DNA of 63,425 nt, the filler included, from Bigelowiella natans CCMP2755 (lineage: Eukaryota; Protista; Cercozoa), in the NCBI GenBank assembly GCA_000320545.1. It is 4 parts of 4 records of this genome, joined end to end, with 100 filler letters (N's around TTAATTAATTAA, not from the genome) between each part and the next. Parts side by side here need not be neighbours in the genome. Positions count along the whole stretch, not along the records: positions 15,689 to 47,403 come from ADNK01002050.1; 3 more parts are not named here. One strand, written 5' to 3'. Shown one piece after another: positions 15,589 to 54,814 of this stretch. The number at the start of each line of letters is the position of its first letter. The first letter of the stretch is position 1. A program made the position numbers and the translations under genes. The notes beneath the pieces were generated by a model that saw only the letters and a list, made by a program, of their open reading frames with translations, had not been told where the DNA came from and did not search any database.

Positions 15589-15688
15589 NNNNNNNNNNNN
15601 NNNNNNNNNNNNNNNNNNNNNNNNNNNNNNNNTTAATTAATTAANNNNNNNNNNNNNNNNNNNNNNNNNNNNNNNNNNNNNNNNNNNN
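15589..15688. other. Assembly gap with artificial six-frame-stop linker
   Basis: 44 N + TTAATTAATTAA (15633-15644) + 44 N; same layout as the other two gaps. Confidence 0.95.
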
Positions 15689-21947: not shown

Positions 21948-22703
21948 TCAGCTGTAGCCGACTTTCCCTAGTCTGGAGTCCGTTTTAGGGTTCGCTGTTA
22001 TCATTTGGGCTTCCACCAACCCTCTGTTTATTCCCCTTTGCAATGTTGCCAACCTATTAATGTACATCAGCCGCAAGATTCTGCAAGCGCGGTCAAGATC
22101 CTTATCACCAGTCGTGAACCCAAGGTCGCATTTTGAGTAGTCTGCCTTTTCCGCAGGAGCACCAGGTCCATTCTTGCGCATGTTCGCAAGCGTCTCGCGG
22201 CCGAATTTGTTTTCCAGTGTCGAGCACACCGCCTTTGCAAGGGCCTTCGTGTTCGGACGGTCCGAAATCTTCAGCAGATCAGCAATTTCATGTAAAGTCT
22301 CGACAACAGAGCTGTCTTTCAGGTTGCACTTGGCAGAAAGATCCTCCGGTTTCCAGGGGATGCTCTGGCTGTTAAACAATTCCTTCTGGTCGCTGTACTC
22401 CGCGCTCACTGCCTTGCTGAGCATCCAATCCAACACATAGAGAGTTTCATCCTTTTCTCCGAGTAACTTTTTGGTAGGGGCTGGGTACTCAAGGTCTTTC
22501 AGGTATTTTATGAAGGCGGGCTCCCATGTCTCGTCCTCATTCACTTTGCGCAGGGGCTTGCGATTCTCTATGGAGTAGAGCCTAATCTTCGTTTCCTCGA
22601 GCCATACAATGAGGGTTCTGTACTGACGCTTATCAGTAGGGTCGAATCGATCCCAGTGAGGGTACTGCAGAGCTCGTAGCTTCCGCACGAACCCTCCGGG
22701 CAT
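21948..22703 (-). CDS. RTRAF: RNA transcription, translation and transport factor (CGI-99/C14orf166; tRNA-ligase complex subunit), intronless
   Basis: FVRKLRALQYP, LIVWLEETKIRLYSIENRKPLR, LGFTTGD..LDRACRILRLMYI and the conserved C-terminus ITANPKTDSRLGKVG. Confidence 0.92.
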   Translation of the reverse strand: MPGGFVRKLRALQYPHWDRFDPTDKRQYRTLIVWLEETKIRLYSIENRKPLRKVNEDETWEPAFIKYLKDLEYPAPTKKLLGEKDETLYVLDWMLSKAVSAEYSDQKELFNSQSIPWKPEDLSAKCNLKDSSVVETLHEIADLLKISDRPNTKALAKAVCSTLENKFGRETLANMRKNGPGAPAEKADYSKCDLGFTTGDKDLDRACRILRLMYINRLATLQRGINRGLVEAQMITANPKTDSRLGKVGYS

Positions 22704-23125
22704 GGTGGGAGGGGACAACCTCTGCTAAAATAGGATTCAGCTGTGATGTCTTCTGGACATCTAAAATACGGAAAACATCTAAAAATACTTTTCGACGATA
22801 AACATGCAGCGGCACAAAAATATTCTATTTTCTGCGTTAGTCATCAAAAATGAAATAGGAAGTTTTCCGCATGTAAAGTTATCGTTCTTTCCTTGTGGGG
22901 GTCTTTTCCGGTAAACAATCTCAACATAAAACATCCCATGTGTTGATCGGATCCGAAACTCAAACCGGAAACAATCACGATTATGTCATGCGACGAGCTA
23001 TGAATATTGTCGCAGGAAATAAATCATCGGGATTTTCACCATATTCACTGAGTCCTCGTATTATCACCACACCCTACTCTCCGGTCCATCCACTCCCATT
23101 CCAGAACCCCCCTCCTCTTTCCAGC

Positions 23126-28773: not shown

Positions 28774-29472
28774 ACTCCTTTTACTACTTACTACTACCAC
28801 TACTACTACTAATGCTATCACCAATGATTGCGAAAAATAGAATGATGCTTTTGGTCATGATGGCGCATTTCAACTATTGCATTTCATGAAGACAGTCGTC
28901 TTAATAATCGTGAGAAAAGGATGGCCCGAAGATGATAACATCACCACTACACTCCGTCCGTCGCCACCACCCATACCACCCCATCAGCAAATTTCTGCAG
29001 CACGCAATCACCACCGCCCCCCCGCCCCCACCACCTGTAGCTCTGTGAAACCGAGCCTAGCTCCACCGCGCCCTTGAAGTACAAAGGCGCAACGATGGTC
29101 CCGGGGAGAATCTGAATCAGATAACGGTACGATGTGGTGAAGAACTCGAGATTCCTCTGCTGACGAATGACTTCGGCGATGTTGTCGGTAAGCCGTCCCA
29201 GGCGCTGCACCGCTTGCTGCTGCTCCTGTTGCTCGCCCCCGTAGAAAGCAATGGACTCGGCGTTCTCGCGGAGGCGCATCAGTGCGTAGCGGAAGTCGGC
29301 CTCTCTCTGCAGCTGCTCAAAATTGAGCGCGGCGAGCTTTTTGCCAATACTGGCCTGTGTGTGTGTGTGTGTGTGTGAGTGTGTGTATGTGTGTTTTGTG
29401 AGGTGGAGTCGCATACTTAGTCGGTGATCGAAGAGAGTGCATCTACCATCACATTCTCTGCACAAATCCGTT

Positions 29473-29513
<41 letters not shown>

Positions 29514-29539
29514 TTTCTCTCTCGTTGTGCATGTGTGTG

Positions 29540-29578
<39 letters not shown>

Positions 29579-30932
29579 TGTGTGGTCTTTTGTAAACTAA
29601 ATAGAGCAGAGAACGAATTGAATCCGTTATCATCACAACTTCCACTACTAATAGTATTGCTGTCGCTACCGTAACGACGGTTCCGACGGAGGCGTACGCG
29701 ACGATTGCAACGAAGAGCTGCGGGTAGATTGACCAGAGAATCGCCGAGAAGCTCACCAAATCGATGAGCGAGGTCAGCACCGTGATGAAGAACGCGAGCG
29801 ACACGGTGCAAAACGATCGTACGTCCTCCGCAATTCGCTGATCTGGATTATCTAGGCCGTTATACGCTGAGGAGGGTGAGGAGGACGTGACAGCCAGCGC
29901 TGTCTTGTTGCTTTTATCAGCAACATCGGATACTTCGGCGGAAGATGCTTCTCCCACGCCCTCTCCTCCTGCTGTCTGCTGGTTCGTTGATATCGAGTAG
30001 AAGGCGCGGTTTGCCGTGTAGAGGCTGAGCACGCGCTCCGTCATCCATTCCCGCCACTTGAGCGCGAGCTTCTCGCGCTGGAAACGATAGAACACGGAGA
30101 CCGGTACCCCAGCAATGAGCGCGAGCCCGAAGCGCGAAACGACGGTGGAGAATCCGCTGACGTCGCGGGTATTGAGAGCAGACCAGAAGTCTCGAGATAC
30201 GTACGAGAAGACGACGGACACCCCTGACTGCAGCAGGGTAAGCGCAATGACAGTGGCTAGCATGACCTTGGCGCTGTTCTCCTCCTTGAAGTACGGAACG
30301 GACATCCTGGCATCGATTATTGTGGACATGCAGAGAAGGAGATCGTTAGATGCATGGGCTCGCTGCTCAGTGAACAAGGTTTAGGGCTAAGAGGGAGAAT
30401 AAAATGTAGAGATACTGTTGTGTATGCTCATTGCACTGCCAAATTTATACAGGTGTATGTGAAAGGAAATTGAATGTCGTAACTGCCAAAACAAGCGGAG
30501 TTGCTCTCTCACTGTCGCCATGGTATGCTTCAATTCGGGCGTCGCCGATGCTCCTTGGTTGCTAGTGGCGGCGGGGATATTCCTCTTGCTCGAGCCTTCA
30601 ACTGCACGAATCTGAAGCCGACGAGGCGCTCGTAGCGATGTAGTAGCGCGCCGGTTCGAGAAGAAACGCCCGGTTTCGACACCTCCCAATCGATCAAAGC
30701 TTTTCATCAGCGATTCGGAAGATATAGCCCCCTTCGTCTTCACCCGGCGGCCACGGAAGGTTTGTTGCATGGTAGGCCCTCCCATCGTCATCATCTTGCG
30801 TGAGGAGTGAGCCCATTTTGCCCCCTTGCTTCTCTGACCACGGACAGATCCTGTGTGGCCTTTGATACAACTAGATGTGGCAGAAAGGGCAAAGAAGAAG
30901 AGGAGGAGGGGAGGGTGGTGTCTTCGATGCAT
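26432..30932 (-). CDS. ABCD: ABC transporter subfamily D half-transporter (SbmA/BacA-like membrane domain) with bipartite leader
   Basis: DNPDQRI, EAA motif EADFRYALMRLRENAESIAFYGGE, Walker A GESGTGKSSLLRAIAGLW, Q-loop FFLPQKPY, signature LSLGEQQRLAF, Walker B AILDEATSA, H-loop VGHRPSL. First ATG at 30932. Confidence 0.93.
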
Positions 30933-31889
30933 TGTAGGGTCGATAGGGGGTCCCTTGGCCACTCAGGGCCACTCGTGCTATGTGCTTGGATGAAATTTCA
31001 GCACGAATTTGTGACAAAATCTTCGGCGGATGACGAGCATTAAATGTAAATTTAGGCAATTTGCCTTGTCGCCATTATAAAAAGTAGGATGTTTGCGAAA
31101 CGGATTCGAAATCACTTTTGATATGCAAAGTTTAGCATGTTTCAACGGTTGATTTTGGTCTAGAAGTAAAGCCAATAATTGGAGAAAATTCCATGCATTT
31201 ACATAGAACGACATCCCTCAACGATGACAAAATCCGCACGGCATTTTCTTTTCTTTTGCTCGGCCGGAATCGAAGATGAGGGTCACAAAGAATCGAATGC
31301 CACCAGCCAAGAGTTTCCACGGCACTCCAGCACGACTTCCAGTTTTCAGATCCATCACGCCATCGCATCGCTCTGGATTTGATCATGCCACTGATGTGCT
31401 GCCACGGAAACACACAATGCAACGTGCGTGCCACTGAGGCGACACAAGCAAAGAACGACCACAGTGCTGGCGGCGATCACACCACGATGATGACCAAAAG
31501 AAAAAGTCACCGCCAGCTCCAGAGCTCTTTGAAACGTTTGTGATTCGAAGTGTTGCGCAGAGCTGTGGCCCAGCAATCACAGGTGGTGGACAACATTTTT
31601 GTTTTTTTTTCATCCACCACCGCAGCAACCTTTCCAATGTGTGAATGCAATGATGGACACAGTCACATGTGTTGCATGTCCATCATACAAACGTGCACAG
31701 ACACATACCGCATGCATGCTTGCCAATCTGCAATGTGGTCAGCATCACACGCTCGCAGGCCAATTTTGCTGCATGCAGTGCACAAGCAGGGAGCATCTCT
31801 GGTGGCCTAGTCCGCTGTCATCGCGTTGCTTCCAATTTTGTTGTCGCTCCATGTGGGTTGCACCACATGCACGCCTGTTGATGGCTAAA

Positions 31890-31934
<45 letters not shown>

Positions 31935-32099
31935 AAACACAACATGCACACACATCTGTAAATAATAGAGTACATGGTGCCCCCCCCTCACATGATGCAC
32001 AAATTCAAATAGCTGCAGAGATCGAGTCACATTGCGAGAAGAGCCTATAAGATGTAGCTGTGAGGCAAAGCCTCTAGGCGGTCGTCGACAGCATTAGAG

Positions 32100-32876
32100 C
32101 TAACCAAGTGGTGTATGGAAAGCCGAACTCGACATTCTTGCCTCTATGTCCCCACTGATCAGCACGTCCATAACCTTCTGCACATCGCCATTAAATTCAT
32201 TTAAAAGTTTTAAGTTGACAATTGTATTCTTAAACCCCATCGCTCTCAGTTCCTTGAGCTGTGCTGTAAACATCCACACTCCGCCTCTTTCGGCAATATT
32301 CCGCCGTCGCCGTTTGCTTTGATCCGTCCTAGATGACTCTGGGTTGCAAGAGATTTCATTGGGTTGATTTTTCGTATCGGAATCTGTCTTCCCAGACTTG
32401 CCTCTATCATCATCATCTGTGACCACTTTCTTCTCAGGCTGAGATATAGCAGCCTTCCTTGAAGGCTTAGTGAATGAAGAGTGGGTTTTCCTTTTGCACT
32501 GACCACCGTGTCTTTTAGGGCGGATGCAAAAATTGTTCTTCGGACATTGTATTGGAGGCAAATCTTTATCCTTCATCCCCTTTCTCCGTTTTACTTTCTT
32601 CATAAAGCCTGAATCCTTCTTGAGATTCTCTTGATTTCTTGCACAGGGACCCGTGCATTCCTCAGGAACCCGATTTTTTATGCATCTATAGCAAGGAAAT
32701 TTCTTGTGGGTACAACGCACTTTTCTGAAATAACAATCCTTGCAGCAACATTTGACTTTGCTAATTTTGCAATTGGTGCAAACTACGTTATCCCTGTTCC
32801 TCTTTGTCTTCAACTCTGGTATCGATCTTACAGAAGCCAGATATTCCTTTGGAGACATTTCAATTTTATCCGACAT
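32100..32876 (-). CDS. Intronless Zn(II)2Cys6 binuclear-cluster protein with extra C-C-H-C motif and C-terminal UBA domain
   Basis: C-x2-C-x6-C-x6-C-x2-C-x8-C (CKDCYFRKVRCTHKKFPCYRCIKNRVPEEC); CPKNNFCIRPKRHGGQC; UBA pattern QLKELRAMGF...NLKLLNEFNGDVQKVMDVL. Confidence 0.8.
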   Translation of the reverse strand: MSDKIEMSPKEYLASVRSIPELKTKRNRDNVVCTNCKISKVKCCCKDCYFRKVRCTHKKFPCYRCIKNRVPEECTGPCARNQENLKKDSGFMKKVKRRKGMKDKDLPPIQCPKNNFCIRPKRHGGQCKRKTHSSFTKPSRKAAISQPEKKVVTDDDDRGKSGKTDSDTKNQPNEISCNPESSRTDQSKRRRRNIAERGGVWMFTAQLKELRAMGFKNTIVNLKLLNEFNGDVQKVMDVLISGDIEARMSSSAFHTPLG

Positions 32877-33829
32877 AGCTTGTTTGTAATTCTCCTACTG
32901 TAATTGGTATAAGTCGCAACCGAAGGTCGAGTGTTTAAATGAGGTTTGACGTAAAATAAATAAATACAATGAAATGAATGAGGGAAGTAAGAATTGATTC
33001 AGCACCCGATACAAATGCCTTCTTAAGATGTTACGATCTATCTTCAAAAATTCCCGTTGCACCCTGGTCCCTCTATTTCTCTCCCTGTCTGCTCTTCTTC
33101 ATTTACTTTAGTTCCTCTCACTACCACTTCTTCCTACGTGGATCTGAGAATCAACGGACCTGCAACCGAAGCGAGAAGTTTGGCGATTGCAAGCTGGATG
33201 CAGAAGATCAATTTAGTCAACAATACAATATGTCATGTAGAATAAGCTTAAAGGGGAAGTGGGGGAGGGGGCTTTGCAGGTTTGAGGATCCCATACTTAA
33301 TCGCTGAATGGAAAGTCAGTCAGTGCTCACAGCTTGTCCTCGGTGCTCGCGGGTGCCGGGCCTAGTGAAGAGTTCTTGACAGCTTGTACGACATGATTTG
33401 AGGGTTACCGCAACGAAGAAATCGCCACAATTTTTGTGATTCAGGAGTTTCGTTCCGGCAACGAGGTTGGAAATCCTCGACTTCGGGCCAGGAACGAGAA
33501 AACAAACCATGGGGAAAACACAGCGAAACCCCCAGCACCGCCTTGTCGCAGATGAAAAATACGACGATGGGGAAACGACATGAAAGAATAATGTCGCTGG
33601 GAAACCATCAAACAGCAGCAAAAAGGCATTGTCTTAACTCCGAGGACAATAAGAGGCCATTTACACCATAAGACTTCCGAATGTATAAGGCAAATTGATA
33701 AAATGCTCTTTCTCGCCCGCCCGAAATTTTTGCCGTTCCCTGATTCAATCTGAATGTCTCAAAAATTGTAACTCCGCAAAAAGTTGTGTTACCTTGCTCT
33801 ACGTTCAGACTAGAGGGGCCAGAGTTTCC

Positions 33830-36085
33830 ATGACTTCTTGCTCCTCGTCTTCGTCTCTTCCTCCTCCTCCTCCCCTTCTTTTCCCTTCTTCTTCTTCATC
33901 TTCTTCAGTGGCGCTTGGCGCAAGAAGTTCGCTCAACACATCGCAAATGGTTACCTCCTGTTAACCTTACACGCAAGCAGAAGTAGGGCGTGGAATCATT
34001 GAAATGACACAGATTTTGTCTATTTTCAAGGAGCAAATGAAGGGTGGAAAACTGGAATCACGGGAAGAAAAGGGGAGTTTGAATTGGGTTGAAATCCTAA
34101 ATGGTACGTACACTTTTTTGTGGCCCAAAGAAAAACTGATAAATTAGACAATGTTATTGCATTACACCACGATTAATTTATTTATTCATACGTCATATTG
34201 ATACAAAATTTGACTACATATTAAGCGTTAATCATTGTGATAATAAATTAGAATCTGCCTGTATCATTTGTGCATATGCATGTCAGATCAAATTGATTTT
34301 ATGTGGCTACAATGTGTTCATGCTTTCGTTATTCTCTCTCCTATGTGTGTGTGTGTGTGTGTGTGTGATGTGTGTTTGTGTGATGTGTGTTTTATGTGTG
34401 TATATGTGTGTATATGGATTTATTCAATCGTCTCAGATTCAGTGTCTTTGAAGTGTCCTTTTGGTTGTCGCGGCAAAATAGATTTTTACCTACACGATGA
34501 TATTTATGAAACTTCACATGACTGTGAAATGTCGAAAAAGCCGAAGCTTCCAAGTGACATGGACTACAAGCCAACTTGTCCTTATTGCGATAAACCATTC
34601 AAAATTGTATCTCTACCAAGAGACAAAAGTGAACCGCGTTTCAATTGGAAAAGTTTTTGTGCGCATATTAGCAGATGTAAATTGAATCCAGATAAATCAG
34701 AACAGAAGGATTGGGAACAACTTGGTCTTGCGTACCTCAAATTTGTCGTTCTTAGAAGAATGCCATATAACCCTGCAATTAATTATCCATTCACATATCC
34801 CGAAAAGTTCAAAAATCCCAATCAAAGCCTGCTCGTACTTCAAGGAGTGGAGGCCAAGAGAAGCAATTCGGCGAAGCAAGACTCCCGTGACGCCATCGAA
34901 AAATTGGATGAAATTCTAAGATACAGAGGGCAGAATCATAAGTCGAACGACATAACCAACCACAAAAGACCGAGAATTATAAATCTTGTCTTAAAGTATG
35001 AGGTATTTCCCTAATCACACAGTTGTACCACAACGAGTGAATCTTATCTTACGGTATATGGTTTCTTTTCTCTTTAGGTCGATTATGACAATACTGCAGA
35101 GAGACGTCTGTTGGAGGATCACATCAAGAAGAAACTAAAAGAGATTGAAGAAAGAGATATAGTGGACAACATATCGTTAAATCATATTGAACGAGGCTGT
35201 ACGAAGATTACTTTGAAGATTGAACTCCATTCTGGCAACATTGACTTGGAACAGATGGCGGAGCAGATGGCAAAATATCTGGCATACAAAGATAAGACTC
35301 CCAAGATCTTAAGAGAACATTGTAAACTCTAGTCTTAACTAATATGAAAAGTTTTCATTGATACGGCGACTATTTATCCCAAATGTATGATCGTTGTTGC
35401 AGATTTGTACGGTGATAGTACTCACGAAGCATCTTCTTCTAGTTAAAAAAATACGAAATGTGCATGAAGGTGCATGTAAAATAAGACGCTTATGTGACTC
35501 AGGTTCAAGCCTAGTTGAGGAGAAAGGAAGCCTAAATGTGAAAGTTAACCAGTCCGGTCAACAGCAGGGTAGAAAGTTGCTTTCTTTTCAAATATTGGAA
35601 TAGTAGAGATACATTTTCGACAACCTGCAGATAATCACACAAGTGCACGTAGCGATTTGGACGACACGGCAGCCTCTGCAGAGGAATCCATCTTGTCCAG
35701 CGACGAGTCTTCTGATGATGATAGTTTTCAGGGTATGTAAAAATCTCCAGATGTATTCTATTACAACAACATGCTCCACAGTGCTTGAAATTTAATTAAA
35801 TTCATACTTATACTCTCAGATTCAGTGGATTCTAAGGTTACAACTGCGGCAAAGTGTAGCGAGAACTGGGCAGCTCTCAATATGGAGAGACTGAGAGAAA
35901 AGGGGATATCAGAAGAGGACTGTCGAACGTTCGATCGAGCTTCTGATCTCTCAATGGCCGATATTGAATGCTCCAAAGTTCAGGATGCTGTTTTATTGCT
36001 CCAAAGGCGAATTCCACTGTAGTTCTGAACATGTACATTAAATCATGGATGAATAGGATATTTTATAGTCACATAAAATGTATAT

Positions 36086-36126
<41 letters not shown>

Positions 36127-38880
36127 CTGCCCCAGTCTCTCTTTCTCTGGAATGCCAAAGTTTACTAAATACAAATTTGCAAAGTTCACAAATTTACATC
36201 CAATCCAACGTAGTTTAGGTTGGAAATTCTATATTTCATATATTCAAGTGTGTGTGAGTGTTTATGTGCGGGTGTATAGATCCATCATCTTAGCCAATAT
36301 GCTTTATTCTTATGTTGATACCGTAAAACAGTGATCCCATTGCTTCTATCAAAGTGGCGAAAGCCGTACACGAAAAGAGATGGTTTAAGCAGAAGACTTT
36401 GAGTTATAATAACAATCTAATCATTGAGAGGATAGCCCAAGCTCTTAGGGAAGAGAAACGACACACGGTGAGTCACTGAATTTCCTGGATACAAATAATA
36501 AATTAGGGTAAAATACATGTTTCTACGACGCATTGATTTTTTTTTCTTACTTCAATTATTGCTTCGTTTATCTCTGTTCCATTGATACAGATATTTGCAA
36601 AGTTCACGTGCAGAATGGGGAAGCTTATTGCTATGGGTTTGGTCGCTTCCATACTTCCAAAATTAAGAGAGACCATATACAAACCACATGAGAAGTGGGG
36701 ACTATCCAACTACGATCCCAGAAAGCGTTTTAGGACACCTATTCTCATCATAATCAAGCCAATATCTAAGGTGGTCGGAACCGTGCGTGAATTGAACGAG
36801 GGATGGATGTTCGGTCAACGACTGGCGCAGGATTGCAGTTACTTTCAAGACAAAGTTGCTCTCGCAATTCACAAACCAACTGAAGGATTACTCCGAGACA
36901 ATTTCGATTCTAAAGACGACTATCTCTTCCATGTCATCACGCAGGCATCGTTCACGATGACAGAAGATTATGAAGATGAGTTTTTCAGCGGCTACAACAC
37001 TATCATAATCGATGAGGTGGATGATTTGTGTGCGAGTAACGGGGATACTGCAACTATGAAAAGGCTTCAGAGATTGAGGGAGAATGAGGAAAAATGCGGT
37101 TTTCAACCGTTCATGCTCCTCCTCTTTAGCTTCACAGACGAGAAAAAGACAATTGAGAAAGATTTTTTGGGAAAAAAATATATCTCCCTGGAGAACGCCA
37201 AGATGGTCACCAACAAGTTATCAGAACCTTTCATGCTAGACATAATGAGCAGGCAGGCACGAATTTCACGATATGATAACACCTGCGATCGTTTTAATGA
37301 AGGCTTCGGTTACAAGGAAATCAAGGGGCTTACATTCGCGGAGTACCGATGGGCTCCTTCTGGGCATGGTGCAAAGATGGACAAGTTTGCGAAAGACTTC
37401 ATCATAACAAAAGGGAACCTACCCAAAGGGTTTTCTCTTGATGGGGATGCTGACCACAATTGCAGAAAACATATTTATGAAAATTGGCTCGATGAACACG
37501 CAACAAATACGAAGAACGGACTGTATAATGTCGATAGTCCTTCCGCAGTGGTCTTCATTCCAAATCATGATAAGTCGATTCCCACGGATGCGATGTACTT
37601 GAAGCCGAAAGATGAATGCTACAGGAATTGCACAGACTCTTCTCGAGAGATTCCGAAGCAGGATTGGATAGCCAAACGAATCGAGAGCTTATGCGACATC
37701 CTTATGCATACCGTTAAAAAGGGGTTCTATCCTGTAATGCAAGTGCAAAATCCCTTTAGACCTTCTAACCCTCTTCACAGCCTCCTTTCATTCTGCCCAG
37801 ACCCGGATGCAAAAGCGAAGCGGTGGAAAGATATCGTAATTAAAATTATGCGAGGGAAGAAAGAAAGGCGCCTGACTGCGGCCAAAGTTAAGAAAATTTT
37901 CGAAGATAAAATTGAAGAGGCCTCATCGGGCGAGATCAAAGATCTCAAGGAAAACTTCATTTTTCAACGGGAATTCGATTCTGAACGATCCATGCTGCTT
38001 ACTGGCCTTCTTGATGAAGATAAGACCCTCAAAGGTAAGGAATGGGTGCTTAAGCTGACGGATAATCACACAGTTGAGGCAAACAACAAGCTTCGAGAAC
38101 TAGCCAGCTGCATGGTAGACACTCTCGAACGTCTGGAGAAGGATAACAAGGATGATGGGAGTGATTACTGTCGTCTTAACAAGAGTCTCTTCATGCCCCT
38201 TAAAAAGCTTGAGAAAAAATTAAAACGAAAATCCCAGAGCAAAGAAGCTGATGACTTTGAAGAGCTTTTAAACAGGAATGCTAAAAAGTACAAATTCGTC
38301 ATTTTCTGCAAACAGAAACATCGCCGTGGTTCAAGCTTTCCTTCTGCCTGTTCAGTACTCTTCCTAGTAAAGAACATGAATCGATGTGACATAGATCAGT
38401 CGTGTATGCGACCGACTTCTGGGGATCGAAGGAAACCAAAGCAGTATTTCCAAATTACAGTTCTTAGCAAGGAGGTTTATACAAGAATACGTAACTTATT
38501 CTTTGGTACAGGAAAAGGAGAAGGTTTTTATCCTGCGCACGAGCTAACGTGCGACATTAAACATCAAATTTGTTACTTAACGTCTCAAGTACAGAGCATG
38601 AATGAACGCTGTAGGAAAATTTGGAAAAATTACAAAGAAGCCAAAATGAGCGACCCAAATCTCAACTATCCCAACGTAAGCTAATGCATCATCTCAAGCG
38701 ACGACTATGGTAGGTACAATCAAATTGAAATCTATTTGTTTTAGGATTTGGATACGCAATCTAAAGAGGCGGAAAAATTCCTTAAAGACTTGAACAAAGA
38801 AATAGATGAGTTGAAGAAGAAGCTCCAGACACAGCGAACACACGAGAAGGGTAATCGATATTTCACATCCTATCCTTGGG

Positions 38881-38929
<49 letters not shown>

Positions 38930-41900
38930 CATATTTTAAGTTTTTATTTATTTATAAATTTATTTGTATATGTTCATGTGTGTATTTCGTGAAGATGATT
39001 GCGGAAGAATGGAGGCGCATAGAATTCGTTTGAGTTTTATGAAAACTCACGCTTACGTGTAATCAGATGTTACGAAACGCTCAATCAACATGTTGGAAGA
39101 TGTTCGGGATCAAGACTTGTCTTCAGGCGAAAAGAAAATAGAGGGAGAGGGGATATCAGAAAGAAAAAAAGAAAAATGCAATTTGAAAGAGTGCGTTGAA
39201 AGGATTATCGCTTTAAGGGATGCGGAACGAGTTGCTGGAGAGGCAAAAGAGCATATTGAAAAGGACAGAGACGCCATTCTTCAAGACAGAAAACGTTTTG
39301 AGGAAGCTAGAATTCGGATGGAACAGTGCATTCAAAAAAAAAATCTCTCTATTCCCTCATTCGATTGTCTATCAAGGTTGATGAAGTATAACATATCAAT
39401 TGAAAAAATTTTGAATTTGTGTGCTTTGTGTAGGTATTTTCTAGCATTGATTTGGGAGCGGTACAACTATCTCCTCCAGGATTGCTTTTTCAACCGTCTA
39501 AAAAATCTTGGAGACATTCGAATCATGGATAGGCTCTCCGAACTTAAGAATCTCGAAGATGAACTTAAAGAATCAACTGTGCTGTTCTATTCTGCGAGAC
39601 TCGTTCGAGTAGATGATCTCGAAGACTGCCATCACCACAAATGCCCTCCCACATTCATGGAACTGCAAAATCAACGAATCTCATCAAAGGATATACGCAC
39701 CTGTTGCATCCAGCAAATCCATCATCTTGGAGTAAAAATGTTGGACATCACGGGTTCCGTGCACAAATCTCTCAGGGATTACGATTCATTGAGAGATCCA
39801 AATCTCAAAATGACTTTTATCGAGAGAATCTTTCAACGAGAGCGCGGCTCGAAGGATTTGTGGCCACTATGGCACCAGAATTGGATCAATGAACAGATTC
39901 AGTGTATTTGTTCCAAATTAAAGCAAGAGGCTGAAGAAACGATGAACAGTATTCATGATAGCTTTCCTCTTGCCTGCGAGAAAGTGGGCAATGGACTAGG
40001 CAATTCTAACGAAAGAAATGAGACTTCGATCCAGGCATACAAACATTTCACAGCCTTATCTTTCGAAAACCAGGATGCTTTAATGAAGGGTAAAGATCAG
40101 ATTTTACAAAAAAGGACACATCATTCTGAAATTCATCAGTTAAAAATGCTAGACGAGAGCAAAAGCACCAAGGATGCAGTATATCGATGCTTTAGGCTCT
40201 TAGATGGGCTATACCAAATGACCTCTTCAGCTGAGTTTACGATAAATTTTGACGGAGACTGTGATAACTTAAAGCCCATCAATACCTGGATTGGTCAAGA
40301 TCTCAAGCGGCTCATTGCAAAGGAACGAGATCTTGGTGAGAGCAAATTCGAGTTTTTCATCGAGGAGTTCGGTGGTGAGAGTAGGGATGGAGTTCAGCCG
40401 GAACAGAAGGTTTTCATTGAAAAATCTGTGAGGGAGCAAACTAGCTTATTAGTGGAAAGGCCACTTAAGAGGCTGCTAGTCTACGTGACTGAACCTCAGA
40501 TGATGCCTATCAACGCATCTCACGCCTCCATAGATTTGGCTGAAGAACACAATTCTACTAACGGCGAAATGGATCTTGATGAGGAAGATGTTCATGAAGA
40601 TCATACGAGTGATAGCGTTACTAGTGAAGACAACAGCACTGGGAGTGACATTGATATCCCCTATTACATCGAACTGAACTGTATTAACCAGCAGAGGAAA
40701 CCCTTTAAAATCCCAGTTGATAGTAAAGAAATTGGTTTCAAAATGTTCCAGTATTTGCTATCGAAGTGGCAGACCAGTGAAGGCTTGCCCGGGAGATACG
40801 AAATTGTTGAACCATGCCCAGTCATAAAAGCATATGAAAGATTGGAAGTTCTTTTTCATGATGACAATGAACCCAAAAAGAACGAATTGTATCGTATCGT
40901 TGATCTGAACCAAGAAGAGGAGGAAGAATGTGAGGATTTGAGGGAAGGAAGGTGGTACCACCTCGACGAACTCTCTAAGAGAGGCCTTTACCACCTCATC
41001 GACGTAGATGGGTCCAAGACGTGTAATTTGGAGGACAGTATGGCATACATTTCGGACAGGAAGAAAACTCTCCTTTCTGTTAAAGTTCTGGAAATTGCCA
41101 AAGATGTGATACCGCTTGGAGCCAAAATTTATAGAAAGGTTCCAACTTTTATCGTCTCTTTTTCGGAGGAGGAGAAGATTCTACAAGTTGAAAAGGAGAA
41201 CGCAATTGTAGAGGACTTGATCACACGCTTCTTTGAAGGAAACGACGAAGTTGATAATCATTACATGTGCCTTGTGAAAGGCAATAACGTTCGCCGTCTC
41301 GAAGAAGACGACCCACTATGGAAGATAGAAAGTGAGATCAGGAGAACCAAGTCCCAATTGAGACTGTTCGAGGAGCAAAGAAACGCAGTTTTGGTGCTTG
41401 GTAACGACCATTATGAGACTCTTCTGACTAAACCTCGCCAAGCGATAGCCAAATTGAAGCAAAATGCGATTGAAAAGTTGTACGAAGGTTCAAAAGAATT
41501 GTTCACATTAGTGGGAGGAGACAATCAAAGGATTGAAGACTCATGGACTCTTGAACGTGTGAAAAGGGAGTACCCAAATATCTCTTATTTCATTCTGAAA
41601 AAGTTAAAAAAAAGCAATATCGATGTCATCTTTTCCTATCGGAGGCTACTTAAGTCGGTGGTGTATGGAAGCACATTCCATTTGCAGGCAAGACTAGAAT
41701 CAAAGAGAACGGATGTCGAGAAGTGGGTCATAGAAAATACTAAGAACGATCAGAAATACGCTTTGAATTTGAATCTTAGTTTGGTCGACGGTAGCACAAA
41801 GCACCCTATAGATTGGAAAGATACTATTCTACAATGCTGCAGAAGGTGCGTAAAGAGTTCATCTAGTAAGCTAGAATTCGCCATCGAGTGCAAAGGATTG

Positions 41901-44029
41901 GCGTCATTTCGCCTCTGCTCAGTGACGAAAACAAAGCGAGTGCGCGGAGTTGGAAAGAACAAGGACGCTATTTTCCGTGAGCCTGTTCGAAGGAGAAATT
42001 CAGATCAGTACTTCCTATGGATGACAACGAGCAGGACGTGAATCTCTCTGAAGGACATCGGGCTTGCCAGTATTTTCATGAGCTCAACATAAAGTATCTG
42101 CACAACATGGATATGTTCGTTCAAATGGTTAATATAACACTTCTCAACGATCATCATAAAACGGAAGAACAAGAGAATGCATGGAACAAGTTTTTGGCGT
42201 CGTTGAACGAACAAATGTCTAACCTAGTACCCAATACTCCCTTTCCAGTACAGTTTGATTTGGAATCTAAAGAAGATGAGAGGTTCATTTGTGAACTTCT
42301 TTCTAAAAGGTGGGAACCTATAGGCCACATGGAAGCTACACCGAGCAATATTCGTAAAGTCTACAAGAATCAGGAAAAAGAAAAATCCAAAGGCAGAGAT
42401 GTTAAAAAATACCAGTATTTCCTTTCAATTGAAGGACGAACTGCTGTTAAAGTCATCAAGCTGGACTCTTCGAGACCAATTAAGCAAAGAGAGCGATCTG
42501 AGAATTTGAAAGGAAGTTACATCAAATTGGTGTGCAAGAAGTCTAGACTTCCTCTGGACAAGAAGACTGTCAAAGATGCTACAAGTTATTTTGAGGTGCT
42601 CCTCAGCTTCCAAACTCTATCTCTCACGTCAGGGCCATCTCTCACTCTTGGAGAATTTAAAATGAAGAAGGGAATTAACAGGAAGGAAGTCAACAGGATG
42701 CTCTGTCACATGTGGGAAAATCAAAACCAAAATCTAATATCTAATAAGCACGTGGACGGTGAATATTCAGCGATGGCGTTCCGCCTCCAAGACCCCGATG
42801 TGGGTAAACGGGATTCCAACAAAGACGAATCAAAATGTGATTCGAACATGGATGGATCACTACTGAACGCAATTGTGAATATGGAAAAGTACGACCCCAC
42901 TCTCTTCGACGGTCTTCAAATCATAAGTGGCTACATTCTTGATCAGAATAAAGATTTCGTAAAACCACTCCGTGACGAAATTCGCAAGCTCTCGAGTAAC
43001 GATATCAATTACCTGAGTTACAACAAGTTAGTTGTAATATTGCGTGATCTCCTAAAGCTATCGTGTTCATTCTCATGCCTAGGCAATTGTAAAGATTGCG
43101 TGAACTTGGTGTTCGTTGTGTTACAAATTGTCCTCCAGCAGCTACAAGGCAAGAGTTTGAAGTCGAAACTTGCACGTGGGTATAAGCACAAGGACTATCT
43201 TTCCGCAACAGAACATGGTATTAGATTCAAAGAAAAATTCTTCACAGCCAAAACCAGAACTAGGTCGAGGGAGTGTAGTGTCTCCCTAATGTTCCAGCAA
43301 AATGTCGTTCATAATCACATGAAAGAAACTCAAGAAACCAATAACACACACTACATCGAGGCCCTCCGTACCATGCAGCGAGCATCATTTGATGATGAAA
43401 AGGATGGCACGCCAATTCTGCTGTCTAGGTTGTGTGAAAAAGATCCATCGTTTGCCAATGTGTTCACAGGATTTGGTTACGTGTTCGTAGAGTATGGCAA
43501 GCTTCGTCCACACTCCACCTCCATGCGGCTGATCGCCTGTGATGGTGAACAAAAACATAAGTACGATATCTTAATGAACAAATCGGAGCAAAGTGAGAAC
43601 AGGATAGATGCAATGAAAGGGCTTATGATAAGAAAGGGGGACGTTTTAGACAAGATTCATTTGAAGACCTTTCAGAACATTGTAAGCTCGAACAGAGGTC
43701 TGGTACTCGCCACAAAAATTCGGTATTGCATCAAGAATGAATTTTTCCCCTATTTATCTACCGATTCATTTACATGCGATGAGAGCTTCGATGACGACAT
43801 TTATCGACTTTTGTGGATTCTCTTCTCCCAAGCTATGGGAAGACGACTTGATTATGACTGGAAGCCAGAAGATAACGATTGGTTTCAAATTTTGGTCAAC
43901 CCTCGAAGAATCAGGTTCAAAGAAAAACTTTTCCAATACCTCTCAGACAAGATTCAGGGCAGTGATGAGGACTATGAGTTGCCACCATGGAAGAAGCAAC
44001 GCACTCGAATTCAAGATCCACATCACTGA
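33830..44029 (+). CDS. Giant multi-exon orphan gene (about 2,900 aa if fully spliced): zinc-finger-like motifs, degenerate SF2 helicase, coiled coil, putative ubiquitin-like repeats, unknown C-terminal region
   Basis: Chain of same-strand GT-AG exons from ATG 33830 through the 700-, 983- and 670-aa ORFs. CPYCDKPF...CAHISRC; AKFTCRMGKL (motif I-like), IIIDEVDD (II), LLFSFT (III), KHRRGSSFP (V), DIDQSCMRP (VI). Joining into one gene is inferred. Confidence 0.6.
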
Positions 44030-44733
44030 TGGCGGAGAGGAATCCAAGCCAAGATGATCAACATCGTTGCATGTGTTTGAGTGTCGTTCTAGTTGTCGAT
44101 AATTGTGCACACACTGTGCTAGCTATGAACTGCATTGTGCCCTGCGCGCGCCACATTCTAGCATGTGCTTTGTGCGTGTTGGGCTGCATGTCTTTGTGTG
44201 CACATGCATGTCGCTGATGCTGACTTCATCATCACAGTCACCCGAAACGTGAGACATGTGGTCACATTGATGAAGTGATTAAATGTTTTCATTAGGATGA
44301 CCATTGAAAAGATTTGATCACTTAATTGCATCTGTCTCACATTGATGAATGTCACATGCGTGAGCAGCAACCACTTGATTGTTGGCATGTGCTTCACTCG
44401 TTGCCAAGTAATTAAGCGTCACAGATTGGCTCAAATGCCGGAGCATCCGATCGATCCGTCTGCGCCTGAACACCACGCAATCGCCACAAGTCGTGTCGCG
44501 CGTGCATGTGCGCCAATCACGACATGTTTGATGGCAAGTAGGTTGCAATGTGCGCCTGTTTTGACATCAAAGTCGCAAGGTGTTCCATTTGTTGAGCGCA
44601 AGCTGCTGCTCCTCACACACAAGCACGGAAGCCAGAAAGCGTGAAAAGCACATCTCCACCCTTCGTCTCATCTCTGCGGTCATCGGCGCGCAGTGTTCCG
44701 AGAAGAAACCAGCCAGAGCTTCTAGGAGGAGGG

Positions 44734-47403: not shown

Positions 47404-47503
47404 NNNNNNNNNNNNNNNNNNNNNNNNNNNNNNNNNNNNNNNNNNNNTTAATTAATTAANNNNNNNNNNNNNNNNNNNNNNNNNNNNNNNNNNNNNNNNN
47501 NNN
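47404..47503. other. Assembly gap with artificial six-frame-stop linker
   Basis: 44 N + TTAATTAATTAA (47448-47459) + 44 N. Confidence 0.95.
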
Positions 47504-52966: not shown

Positions 52967-53066
52967 NNNNNNNNNNNNNNNNNNNNNNNNNNNNNNNNNN
53001 NNNNNNNNNNTTAATTAATTAANNNNNNNNNNNNNNNNNNNNNNNNNNNNNNNNNNNNNNNNNNNN
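52967..53066. other. Assembly gap with artificial six-frame-stop linker
   Basis: 44 N + TTAATTAATTAA (53011-53022) + 44 N. Confidence 0.95.
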
Positions 53067-54370
53067 GCCTCTAGCTTTACAACTGCTGTAAGATTTGAGT
53101 CAATATTTGTCAATATGGATCCCTGCTTAAACTGCGGTAAGTCGTGACCCGAAATGCTTAACCGTAAGGACTCCCCAGGGAAAGCTTGATTAAGATCCTC
53201 ACCACCAGCGGTCATTAAATTGACTGTTATTTCTTTCCCTTCTGGAAGCATTTTGAGAACATCCCCTACTTTCAATATCCCCGATTCCAGTTTTCCTGTT
53301 ACTTGAATATCACGTTCTTTGTAACTGCTAACTACCGGAAATATTATGTCTTTTTGCTCCGCATCGTCGTTCGGTAATTGCAGATTGTCCAGTATCTCTA
53401 TCAAACTAGGCCCTGAATAAAAGGGGCACCGTGATGACGATGGCGGAGTGACAAGCCCCTCACCTTGTAGACCTGATATCGGTAGAACTGTCACATCACG
53501 TGCTCTCCAACCAGCGTGTTTCAGGAATGGTAAAAGCTTATTTTGAATCTCTTCGAATCTACTCTTGCTCCACGTTTTCCCGTCTTCTAACACCACGGAG
53601 TTGTCATCTAGTTTGTTGATACACACAACAAGTTTTTTTACCCCTGCGGATTTTGCTAGTAATGCATGTTCCCTTGTTTGGCCACCCTTATCGAATCCGG
53701 TCTCGAATTCTCCTTTTCTTCCAGAAATAATTAGAATACCTACATCTGCTTGTGATGCACCACCTATCATGTGTGGAACGTAGCCCTTGTGTCCGGGAGC
53801 ATCTAAAATCGTAAATCTGGTCATATCTGTCTCAAAATATGCTTGCCCACATTCTTCCGTCTTCCCCTTGTTTCTTTCTCCTTCTGTTGTGTCCAGAGCA
53901 TACGCATATTTCCAGCTTTCTCTTCCTCGGTCGCGGGCATCCTTCTCACATTTGGCCATAGTCCGCTCATCTATTGATCCTGTCATTGCTAAGATGTGCC
54001 CTGCTATGGTTGATTTCCCGGCATCAACATGGCCAATGAATATAATGTTCATGTGGCGTTTGCGAGTACCATCTATACTCAGGGACTTCAACGAAAGCCG
54101 CTCATGGACATTGTTGCCACCCCCGCCTCCAGTTCTACCACGGGGAGTGACACAATTTTTGCATCTGTAATTCAGCTGAAAACTACAGCGGCGAGATATG
54201 AAGGGGAGACATCTGTTCAGAGAATCTGATGACAACGGTGGCAATCTGCTAAGATGGGTAAATTTGTAACCCTGCATGCGCTGTTGTCTGCTCCTCGCAT
54301 GAGCTGCTCTGTCGAACAGGGAGGACAGAGTAGGGGCTGAGCTGCATGAGGTGAGGGCTTTAGCAGTAGC

Positions 54371-54407
<37 letters not shown>

Positions 54408-54577
54408 ATAGTAGTAGTAGTAGTAGTCAAAGGTTGATAATAGCGATGATCCTGATTATCCGAATCATCGCTGCTTCCTTTGAAGGAGGAACGGGATGAA
54501 GAGGATAGGGTCGAAAGTTGCAGCAATAGCATCATGCTTGTCAATCTGGAAACGTTGTAGATTGTGGAATATCCCAT
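53067..54577 (-). CDS. eRF3: Eukaryotic release factor 3 (eRF3/SUP35/GSPT)-type translational GTPase with a long N-terminal leader; 3' end lost in the gap
   Basis: NIIFIGHVDAGKST, RESWKYAYALDT..ERNKGKT, FTILDAPGHKGYVPHMIGGASQAD, GEFETGFDKGGQTREH, INKLDD and PISG, followed by an EF-Tu domain II-like region. Confidence 0.88.
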
Positions 54578-54814
54578 GATGTCCTGTTCCTTATAAAATA
54601 ACCAATCGCAGCCTCTGTTCTATTTAGATGTACCTCCTGCTTGGTAGTGTCCAAAATATTTCAATATCTGCGGAGATTCTGAGAACGAGTTACATTTGTA
54701 GGAGGATAGGGTTGTAGGTGGGAGAGGGACAGCAACGCAGTGGTAGGTAGTCCTCCTCTTATTGTTTTTTAGCATCGTTGTTGTTCAATGGTGTTGTTCC
54801 CTAGTTAGGTAGGG

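Follow-up and report, generated by a model that had tools for sequence, protein, structure and literature searches.

A putative restriction-type helicase core in a giant orphan protein of the alga Bigelowiella natans

Closest Described Systems

The RFGKT subgroup consists of single-chain restriction-modification enzymes that contain a helicase and are type ISP-like; PMC2790903 lists 14 members. The Res subunit of the type III enzyme EcoP15I and the H-subunit of CglI are further restriction-type motors of helicase superfamily 2 (SF2), and they serve here as functional models: as described in PMC4490356 and PMC5861437, EcoP15I can use ATP in a switch-like manner and CglI is active with unusual motifs. 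In animals, TRADD-N domains are reported as fused to SF2 helicases, RLR-like receptors and polyubiquitin (PMC8195603). In the present work, a gene encoding a protein of 2,867 aa was analyzed in a stretch of 63,425 nucleotides (four joined parts, hereafter the window) of the genome of the alga Bigelowiella natans CCMP2755 (assembly GCA_000320545.1). The protein is an orphan with a putative ResIII-type SF2 helicase core, for which descent from the RFGKT subgroup is favoured, and it is tentatively considered to be a restriction motor domesticated by the host.

In RIG-I-like receptors, nucleic acids are sensed by an SF2 ATPase flanked by signalling domains, and the Hel2i domain lies between motifs III and IV. 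The algal protein similarly combines an SF2-type ATPase with flanking domains and may act as a sensor. Unlike these receptors, it has its big insertion between motifs IV and V, and no CARD or RIG-I C-terminal domain was found in the Pfam scans of the protein.

With the RFGKT subgroup, the algal protein shares the ResIII-type SF2 core, an Arg located two places before the GK pair of motif I, a spacing of 23 residues between motifs V and VI, and a motif VI lacking both the Gly and the second Arg. In contrast to the subgroup, the algal protein has no detected nuclease or Eco57I methylase, has lost the Thr after GK, the His of the DExH motif and the Gln of the Q-motif, carries a large insertion between motifs IV and V, and is encoded by a eukaryotic gene with 11 introns. 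The likeness to EcoP15I and CglI concerns restriction-type SF2 motors with accessory insertions (PMC4490356, PMC5861437), whereas these proteins differ in the signatures of motifs I and VI, belong to nuclease complexes as subunits and show no significant sequence match. The animal TRADD-N fusions have a common theme with the algal protein, namely, a small adaptor combined with a nucleic-acid-sensing helicase and ubiquitin-type modules (PMC8195603), but the algal TRADD-N match is below threshold, there is no Death-like domain, the ubiquitin-like assignment is putative and the helicase is of the restriction type.

Structure and Transcription of the Gene

The locus is a real single gene that is spliced and transcribed. 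It is located on the plus strand from the ATG at 33830 to the stop codon at 44029 and contains 12 coding exons: 33830-33949, 34031-34103, 34437-35002, 35078-35321 (81 aa), 35503-35568, 35631-35732, 35820-36018, 36332-36467, 36591-38675 (exon 9, with 2,085 nt the largest early exon), 38745-38850, 39067-39376 (310 nt, followed by a 57-nt intron) and 39434-44029 (exon 12, 4.6 kb). Contig 8 (8,741 nt) of the public run X15 covers the locus, and the transcript extends to 44121. All 11 GT..AG introns were seen in X15, and eight of them were repeated in run X17, which belongs to a separate study. The stretch is contained in 20 of the 24 listed rows of public runs (16 studies). None of the runs listed is recorded as RNA, X15 and X17 being labelled "RNA?"; since their contigs skip GT..AG introns, they represent spliced RNA. 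Thus, the single large gene proposed in the preliminary description was confirmed, as was its exon of ~2.1 kb.

Six-frame translation gives three long frames (36537-38681, 39063-42038 and 41981-44026), for which exons of about 2.1, 2.9 and 2.0 kb were previously assumed. The first corresponds to exon 9. The two others are in fact the 310-nt exon, the 57-nt intron and the 4.6-kb exon, since exon 12 is falsely divided by an error at 42011 (plus strand), where the window has lost one base. A T behind this position is missing from the window and present in all three independent contig runs that cover the place, a DNA run included. When the error is read as X, the spliced frame has 2,867 aa and zero internal stops. 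Because a spliced contig and an uninterrupted frame join the three ORFs (open reading frames), they constitute one gene with a last exon of 4.6 kb, and separate ORFs are ruled out. In the public gene model, the first 95 residues are absent and 17 more are dropped to bridge the error at 42011; revealing these missing residues is a practical gain regardless of how the protein is interpreted. Exon 9 matches a single protein with 100% identity; its label is jgi/Bigna1/77905, where Bigna1 is taken to be Bigelowiella natans.

Microsatellites are present in three of the 11 introns. The GC content at third codon positions (GC3) is 0.45, at the bottom of the interval covered by five ORFs nearby (0.45-0.65). 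In the raw reads of run X23, which represents a diverged strain, the depth on the gene is at most 0.7 with a peak at the 3' end on the sense strand, this low depth being uninformative either way on conservation. Runs X21, X22 and X24 at 80% likeness give no coverage on the gene, which likewise says nothing either way about conservation.

Detection of the Helicase Core

Residues ~480-690 very probably represent a ResIII-type RecA1 domain, as judged from the sequence. Its motifs (Q helix, I, Ia, Ib, II and III; aa 482-685) are encoded at 36405..37139 on the plus strand. A second RecA domain is also probable because of the motif order and the V-VI spacing of 23; this putative RecA2 (aa 820-1127, 37542..38465, plus strand) contains motif IV, motif V (G1082), motif VI (Q1105, R1109) and the following strand. 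Between motifs IV and V, the spacing and the helices of a low-confidence model point to a charged, probably helical insertion of ~175 aa (37752..38279, plus strand). The SF2 motifs quoted in the preliminary description are all present in the correct order, namely, CRMGKL (509-514), DEVD (643-646), SFT (682-684), RRGSSFP (1080-1086) and QSCMRP (1105-1110). The suggested restriction-type SF2 core is further upheld by the ESM Atlas, by ordered-motif tests and by the diagnostic columns considered below.

The first 236 codons of exon 9 were used as the ESM Atlas query. Recognition was 3293, the best score was 0.94, 175 of 256 features were common, and 10/10 top families belonged to the ResIII/DEAD clan; in the control, a score of 0.9 was reached by shuffled or reversed proteins in 4-10 of 100 cases. 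The Atlas clusters shown were all of the ResIII type, and their taxa, where recorded, were bacterial, archaeal or phage, which according to the warning of the tool is no sign of transfer.

Two comparison sets were used for the motif analysis. The first consisted of proteins with the R-x-GKT motif from viral contigs (157 found, 43 after removal of near-copies), and the second of other ResIII-type SF2 proteins from bacterial genomes, which were not picked for likeness to the algal protein. After seven rows were dropped (L550, L557, L019, L043, L175, L531 and L571), the joint alignment included 42 R-x-GK rows and 50 others, with eukaryotic SF2 families left out. Ordered chains of ten ungapped blocks were then searched with the family (R-x-GK), rival (50 others) and pooled profiles. 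The rival and pooled chains placed the blocks at residues 482 (Q), 503 (I), 552 (Ia), 612-617 (Ib), 637 (II), 677 (III), 820 (IV), 1070 (V), 1101 (VI) and 1121 (last strand); the family-profile chain placed Q at 470 and two blocks one residue off, and was otherwise the same. The rival-only RecA1 chain scored 31.4, compared with 11.9 ± 3.8 for shuffles (reached by 0/400), and its motifs Q-III landed at the positions found by eye. The rival-only ten-block chain (31.6) was reached by 2/400 shuffles. With the family profile, the RecA1 score was reached by none of 402 real decoy ORFs and the ten-block score by one of 149.

A number of results speak against the presence of the complete core. The rival RecA1 score was reached by 7/402 decoy ORFs, four of which have Walker-like motifs, and the rival ten-block score by 19/149 real decoys, which are a harsher null; the family scores were reached by 3/65 and 5/65 length-matched chunks. 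RecA2 alone was non-significant with the rival (64/400 shuffles) and pooled (104/400) profiles, and with the family profile (9/400) the best chain lies elsewhere. The spacing of motifs IV and V is 250, compared with at most 153 in the 92 SF2 rows, and the gap limit that RecA2 needs was widened after the sequence was seen. Whole-domain family HMMs (hidden Markov models) and hhalign gave zero bits or below, and the helicase exon had no match in Pfam, NCBIfam, PHROGs, PADLOC or PDB; in Pfam, no ResIII, DEAD or Helicase_C match appeared up to E 10. The two HMM envelopes reported despite negative scores lie on motif I and on motifs V-VI; the latter were misaligned by MAFFT. Single-sequence AlphaFold2 modeling of the helicase gave a pLDDT of 34.5, and fold searches with this model listed no RecA protein, which excludes nothing.

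Assignment of the Core to a Helicase Family

Six proteins with the R-x-GK motif were scanned for domains: ResIII was found in all six, the Eco57I methylase in four and the T5orf172/MUG113 nuclease in two. The best PDB matches of the R-x-GK profile were type I R, LlaGI and LlaBIII. This domain content fits the descriptions of the RFGKT subgroup (PMC2790903, PMC2790908, PMC5861437), with which the fetched proteins are provisionally equated. In motif I, Arg occurs in 42/42 family rows and Gly in 50/50 others, and the algal protein has R510. In motif VI, the pattern is [FYMH]R..[ST] in 42/42 family rows and [GAS]R..R in 50/50 others, and the algal protein has MR..S (QSCMRPTS); this column is not circular, but rests on a hand-anchored motif VI. 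Since RFGKT members carry R-x-GK and Q-x-x-h-R-x-x-S, motifs I and VI of the algal protein appear to be largely normal rather than decayed. Thus, of the alterations listed in the preliminary description, those of motifs I and VI largely correspond to the norm of the subgroup (42/42). The Walker A Thr, the DExH His and the Q-motif Gln are lost.

The suggested helicase phylogeny (93 rows) places the algal protein on the side of the RFGKT family with a support of 100 when all blocks are used, and of 99/99 when motif I is removed (16/42 family rows, 27/50 others). From the sequence comparison, descent of the helicase core from the RFGKT subgroup is rather likely. Against this descent, it should be mentioned that the motif I column is circular, as the family was fetched with that motif, and that the support drops to 14/97 without motifs I and VI. 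The algal branch is very long (3.0-4.3), and AU (approximately unbiased) tests reject none of the positions as sister to type ISP (p 0.27), HsdR (0.28) or type III (0.18). At five fixed motifs, the pooled rivals score 21.1 and the family 19.2. The identity to the comparison rows does not exceed 24-25% even over the motif blocks. At the fixed motifs, the giant-virus subgroup scores -3.3 and the mainly phage/bacterial subgroup 15.1. The horizontal or viral origin proposed earlier is retained in that the tree favours RFGKT-type descent, and is not retained as regards a viral rather than a bacterial donor.

The CRSGKT forms from giant-virus contigs cluster with the RFGKT subgroup in the tree. At L125, L126, L146 and ~70 further viral loci, a CRSGKT-type ResIII helicase is often joined to an Eco57I methylase in frames of at least 1,200 aa. 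Several giant-virus CRSGKT helicases lack the DExH His by simple pattern search or have DENH. This giant-virus branch was not met in the open-literature searches.

Search for Relatives

The 2,867-aa protein is an orphan without detectable relatives in the sequence collections searched, as was previously supposed. Exon 9 found only itself among 1.84 billion representatives, where the cluster of the protein would conceal relatives with more than 50% identity, and only itself among 4,307 candidate proteins of 1218-3475 aa (a 90% collection). No match to the C-terminal 1,650 aa was found among 7,995 candidate proteins of up to 1,514 aa, and none of 64 candidates from metagenome contigs was confirmed as a relative. 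Scans of the exons and 18 pieces against Pfam, NCBIfam and PHROGs gave nothing above cut-off, sequence searches of the PDB gave nothing credible, and TBLASTN against phages and plasmids gave best matches of only E 0.5-9. The KwaB row of PADLOC (E 8e-4, 16.9 bits, 81-aa exon 4) was treated as a chance match. None of the 80 loci matched by a CRMGKT DNA pattern proved to be a helicase. Searches of the open literature yielded no report of such a protein, nor of any eukaryotic helicase of the RFGKT type.

Catalytic Residues

The algal core keeps K513, D643, E644, S682, T684, G1082, Q1105 and R1109. Three substitutions argue against an active motor: L514 replaces the Thr/Ser after GK (T/S in 92/92 rows, which were selected with the GK[TS] pattern), D646 replaces the DExH His (H in 92/92 rows), and N484 replaces the Q-motif Gln (Q in 88/92 rows). 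The Thr of the Walker A motif binds Mg2+. In EcoP15I, the adenine is contacted by the Q-motif Gln and by the second Arg of motif VI, and the first Arg matches the gamma-phosphate contact of VASA (PMC4490356). The algal protein has the first Arg and neither of the adenine contacts; the second Arg is missing across the whole family. CglI is described as active although its motif II is of the DEAD type and its motifs I and VI are unusual (PMC5861437), and the EcoP15I motor as able to use ATP switch-like (PMC4490356). By analogy, the algal core might well be a slow, switch-like ATPase, which is favoured over a dead enzyme because of the kept residues and of the activity of CglI with odd motifs. 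A binding-only or dead core is possible, and a processive translocase is unlikely. The earlier suspicion of a dead ATPase was not confirmed, K513, D643, E644, Q1105 and R1109 being retained.

Pseudohelicases are known as a class, and the alternative that survives best, although it is not likely, is an inactive pseudo-helicase whose sole role is to bind nucleic acid or partners within a scaffold that is structural or regulatory and unconnected with defence. The replacement of the three residues listed above, the insertion of ~175 aa in RecA2 and the lack of relatives agree with it. The survival of the K, D-E, S-x-T, G, Q and first motif VI Arg at an identity this low argues for a working motor, as does CglI, in which motif II is DEAD-type, motifs I and VI are odd and activity is nevertheless present (PMC5861437).

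Regions Flanking the Core

The N-terminal part contains a Cys/His-rich region (aa 71-145, 34454..34678, plus strand) with a CxxC...CxxHxxxC putative zinc finger, whose Pfam zinc-finger matches have E values of only 0.02-3. The CPYC...CxxHxxxC finger and the ISLNHIERGCTKITLKI segment described previously are both present. A possible small TRADD-N/SEA-like domain (aa 245-325, 34976..35293, plus strand) spans intron 3. The TRADD-N check returned a match to TRADD-like_N (PF20694) of 14.1-14.3 bits, below the cut-off of 23.7 (E ~0.04, 33/69 positions). Behind the core, a crude heptad scan indicates a coiled-coil-like linker (aa ~1155-1325, 38577..39344, plus strand).

Four to five alpha/beta segments of 72-96 aa (aa 1745-2158, 40659..41900, plus strand) are beta-grasp-like by eye, and they could be beta-grasp folds, which we regard as a tentative assignment. 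Among the ten pairs of five candidate segments, with borders set by hand, one aligns above chance (aa 1905-1985 and 1985-2061; z ~4, reached in one and five of 1000 shuffles). Thus, of the ubiquitin-like repeats proposed earlier, one related pair was found rather than an array of three to four. BLASTP gave no self-match within the protein, and the segments had no match in Pfam, PDB or the Atlas. Comparison with six natural ubiquitins gave z values of -0.6 to 1.3. In the single-sequence AlphaFold2 model of the segments, the pLDDT was 33.8, and fold searches listed no beta-grasp protein, which excludes nothing; none of the above comparisons confirmed the fold. In a search for prokaryotic ubiquitins for a profile, none of 20 genomes gave a hit above cut-off.

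In the C-terminal 670 aa (42023..44026, plus strand), the check for a nuclease or deaminase recognized no family, structure or catalytic motif. GIY-YIG, PD-(D/E)xK, HEPN, deaminase and N6-methylase patterns were not found in the protein; loose HNH-like patterns and one PLD-like pattern are present, as chance gives. Neither the [NDS]PP[YFW] pattern nor an Eco57I methylase family match occurs in it. No nuclease was detected in the same chain, although a very diverged one could have escaped detection.

Possible Origin and Function

The explanation preferred here, as a tentative one, is that an RFGKT-type restriction motor was domesticated in a host protein and reused as an ATP-gated DNA sensor or scaffold. 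The motor would have an ancient source, probably a single-chain RFGKT-type restriction-modification enzyme of bacteria, phages or giant viruses, whose N-terminal nuclease and C-terminal methylase would have been lost or exchanged for host modules (the zinc finger, the possible TRADD-N adaptor, the coiled coil and the small alpha/beta domains). An intact restriction-modification enzyme was rejected as an interpretation, as nuclease and methylase were not found. The two RecA domains might still clamp double-stranded DNA and bind ATP via K513, D643/E644, Q1105 and R1109, hydrolysis would be slowed by the absence of the Walker A Thr (L514 in its place) and the Q-motif Gln, so that a switch would result, and the flanking domains could relay DNA binding to partner proteins. 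The most plausible setting seems to be defence against giant viruses, because methylase-rich ones infect B. natans and its genome has endogenous viral elements, as described in PMC13196603. According to the same source, the viruses were isolated only recently. With a cultured alga-virus pair, the idea of a sensor is testable. If the motor indeed functions in an intron-containing host protein of 2,867 aa, it would exemplify a new way in which eukaryotic sensors arise from parts of prokaryotic defence, although the value is limited by a single orphan of inferred function. Antiviral sensing in Rhizaria is, to our knowledge, poorly described.

A more specific version, quite unlikely as a whole, is an independent counterpart of RIG-I-like receptors for foreign double-stranded DNA, in which the RFGKT motor, a TRADD-N-like adaptor and a ubiquitin-like array would act against giant viruses. 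It is improbable that the gene is a fast-evolved host SF2 helicase (Dicer/RIG-I-like, XPB or similar) with a restriction likeness due to convergence: 11 introns and a GC3 of 0.45 are those of a host-type gene, the AU tests leave the origin unfixed and the comparison set is without eukaryotic SF2 families, but both motifs I and VI show the RFGKT-subgroup pattern, the XPB-like bacterial profile (three rows only) gives -26.5 at the fixed motifs, and the Atlas clusters shown are ResIII-type from bacterial, archaeal or phage taxa, with the warning mentioned above. Slightly less probable still is an active restriction-like DNA translocase that attacks foreign DNA with an unrecognized nuclease or effector in the C-terminal 670 aa or in the N-terminal zinc region. 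The nearest family consists of translocating nuclease-helicase-methylase fusions, most catalytic residues are retained and more than 1,000 aa have no assigned fold; on the other hand, the Walker A Thr is gone and neither a family match nor a nuclease, deaminase or N6-methylase pattern was obtained. That the helicase likeness arose by chance in a long orphan protein is very improbable: no HMM, BLAST or fold search was significant, but the Atlas score of 0.94 (taken with its controls) comes with high recognition and common features, and ten motif blocks are ordered with a V-VI spacing of 23.

Genomic Neighbourhood

The 2,867-aa gene is an old, fully host-type gene. A recent viral insertion or endogenous giant-virus element was rejected on account of the 11 introns and the lack of viral ORFs among nine others scanned. 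These nine ORFs (not all genes of the window) include three host families above cut-off and one weak Zn2Cys6/UBA match. The three ordinary host genes assigned by family match, all on the minus strand, encode an RLL-family protein (21951-22724), the membrane domain of an ABCD-type transporter (28950-30380) and an EF-Tu-type GTPase (53018-54619).

The gene sits head to head with the spliced gene that has weak Zn2Cys6 and UBA matches (32103..33300, minus strand), whose spliced 5' exons extend to 33.3 kb or beyond. In two runs, this neighbour shows different first introns (donors at ~33006 and ~33125) with one common acceptor, and alternative 5' splicing is likely. At 31825-32183, run X23, which has the same species label, shows 16 differences and two insertions relative to the window, which indicates a clearly diverged strain; its reads accumulate at 3' ends on the sense strand.

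Three TA-poor islands are located in the window at 31.2-31.8, 44.0-45.4 and 50.0-51.4 kb. Two of them flank the gene pair, as was noted in the preliminary description, but the third lies elsewhere, so the bracketing is not special and a particular link of the gene to the islands was rejected. In the islands, TA is at 0.04-0.3 of expectation and CA and TG are elevated to 1.4-2.3, as would result from a TA-to-TG/CA change; the sequence common to them is a short simple repeat, with no long similarity. They could be old repeats under a context-specific mutation process. The three N gaps of the window (15589-15688, 47404-47503 and 52967-53066) each consist of two 44-N runs around a 12-base AT-rich spacer. 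A short high-copy repeat is located in the second island at 44290-44340, where the DNA depth reaches ~12,000 compared with ~75. Its loose ends finish in AGCTA, it also occurs in runs from diverged strains, and it resembles the terminus of a small mobile element.

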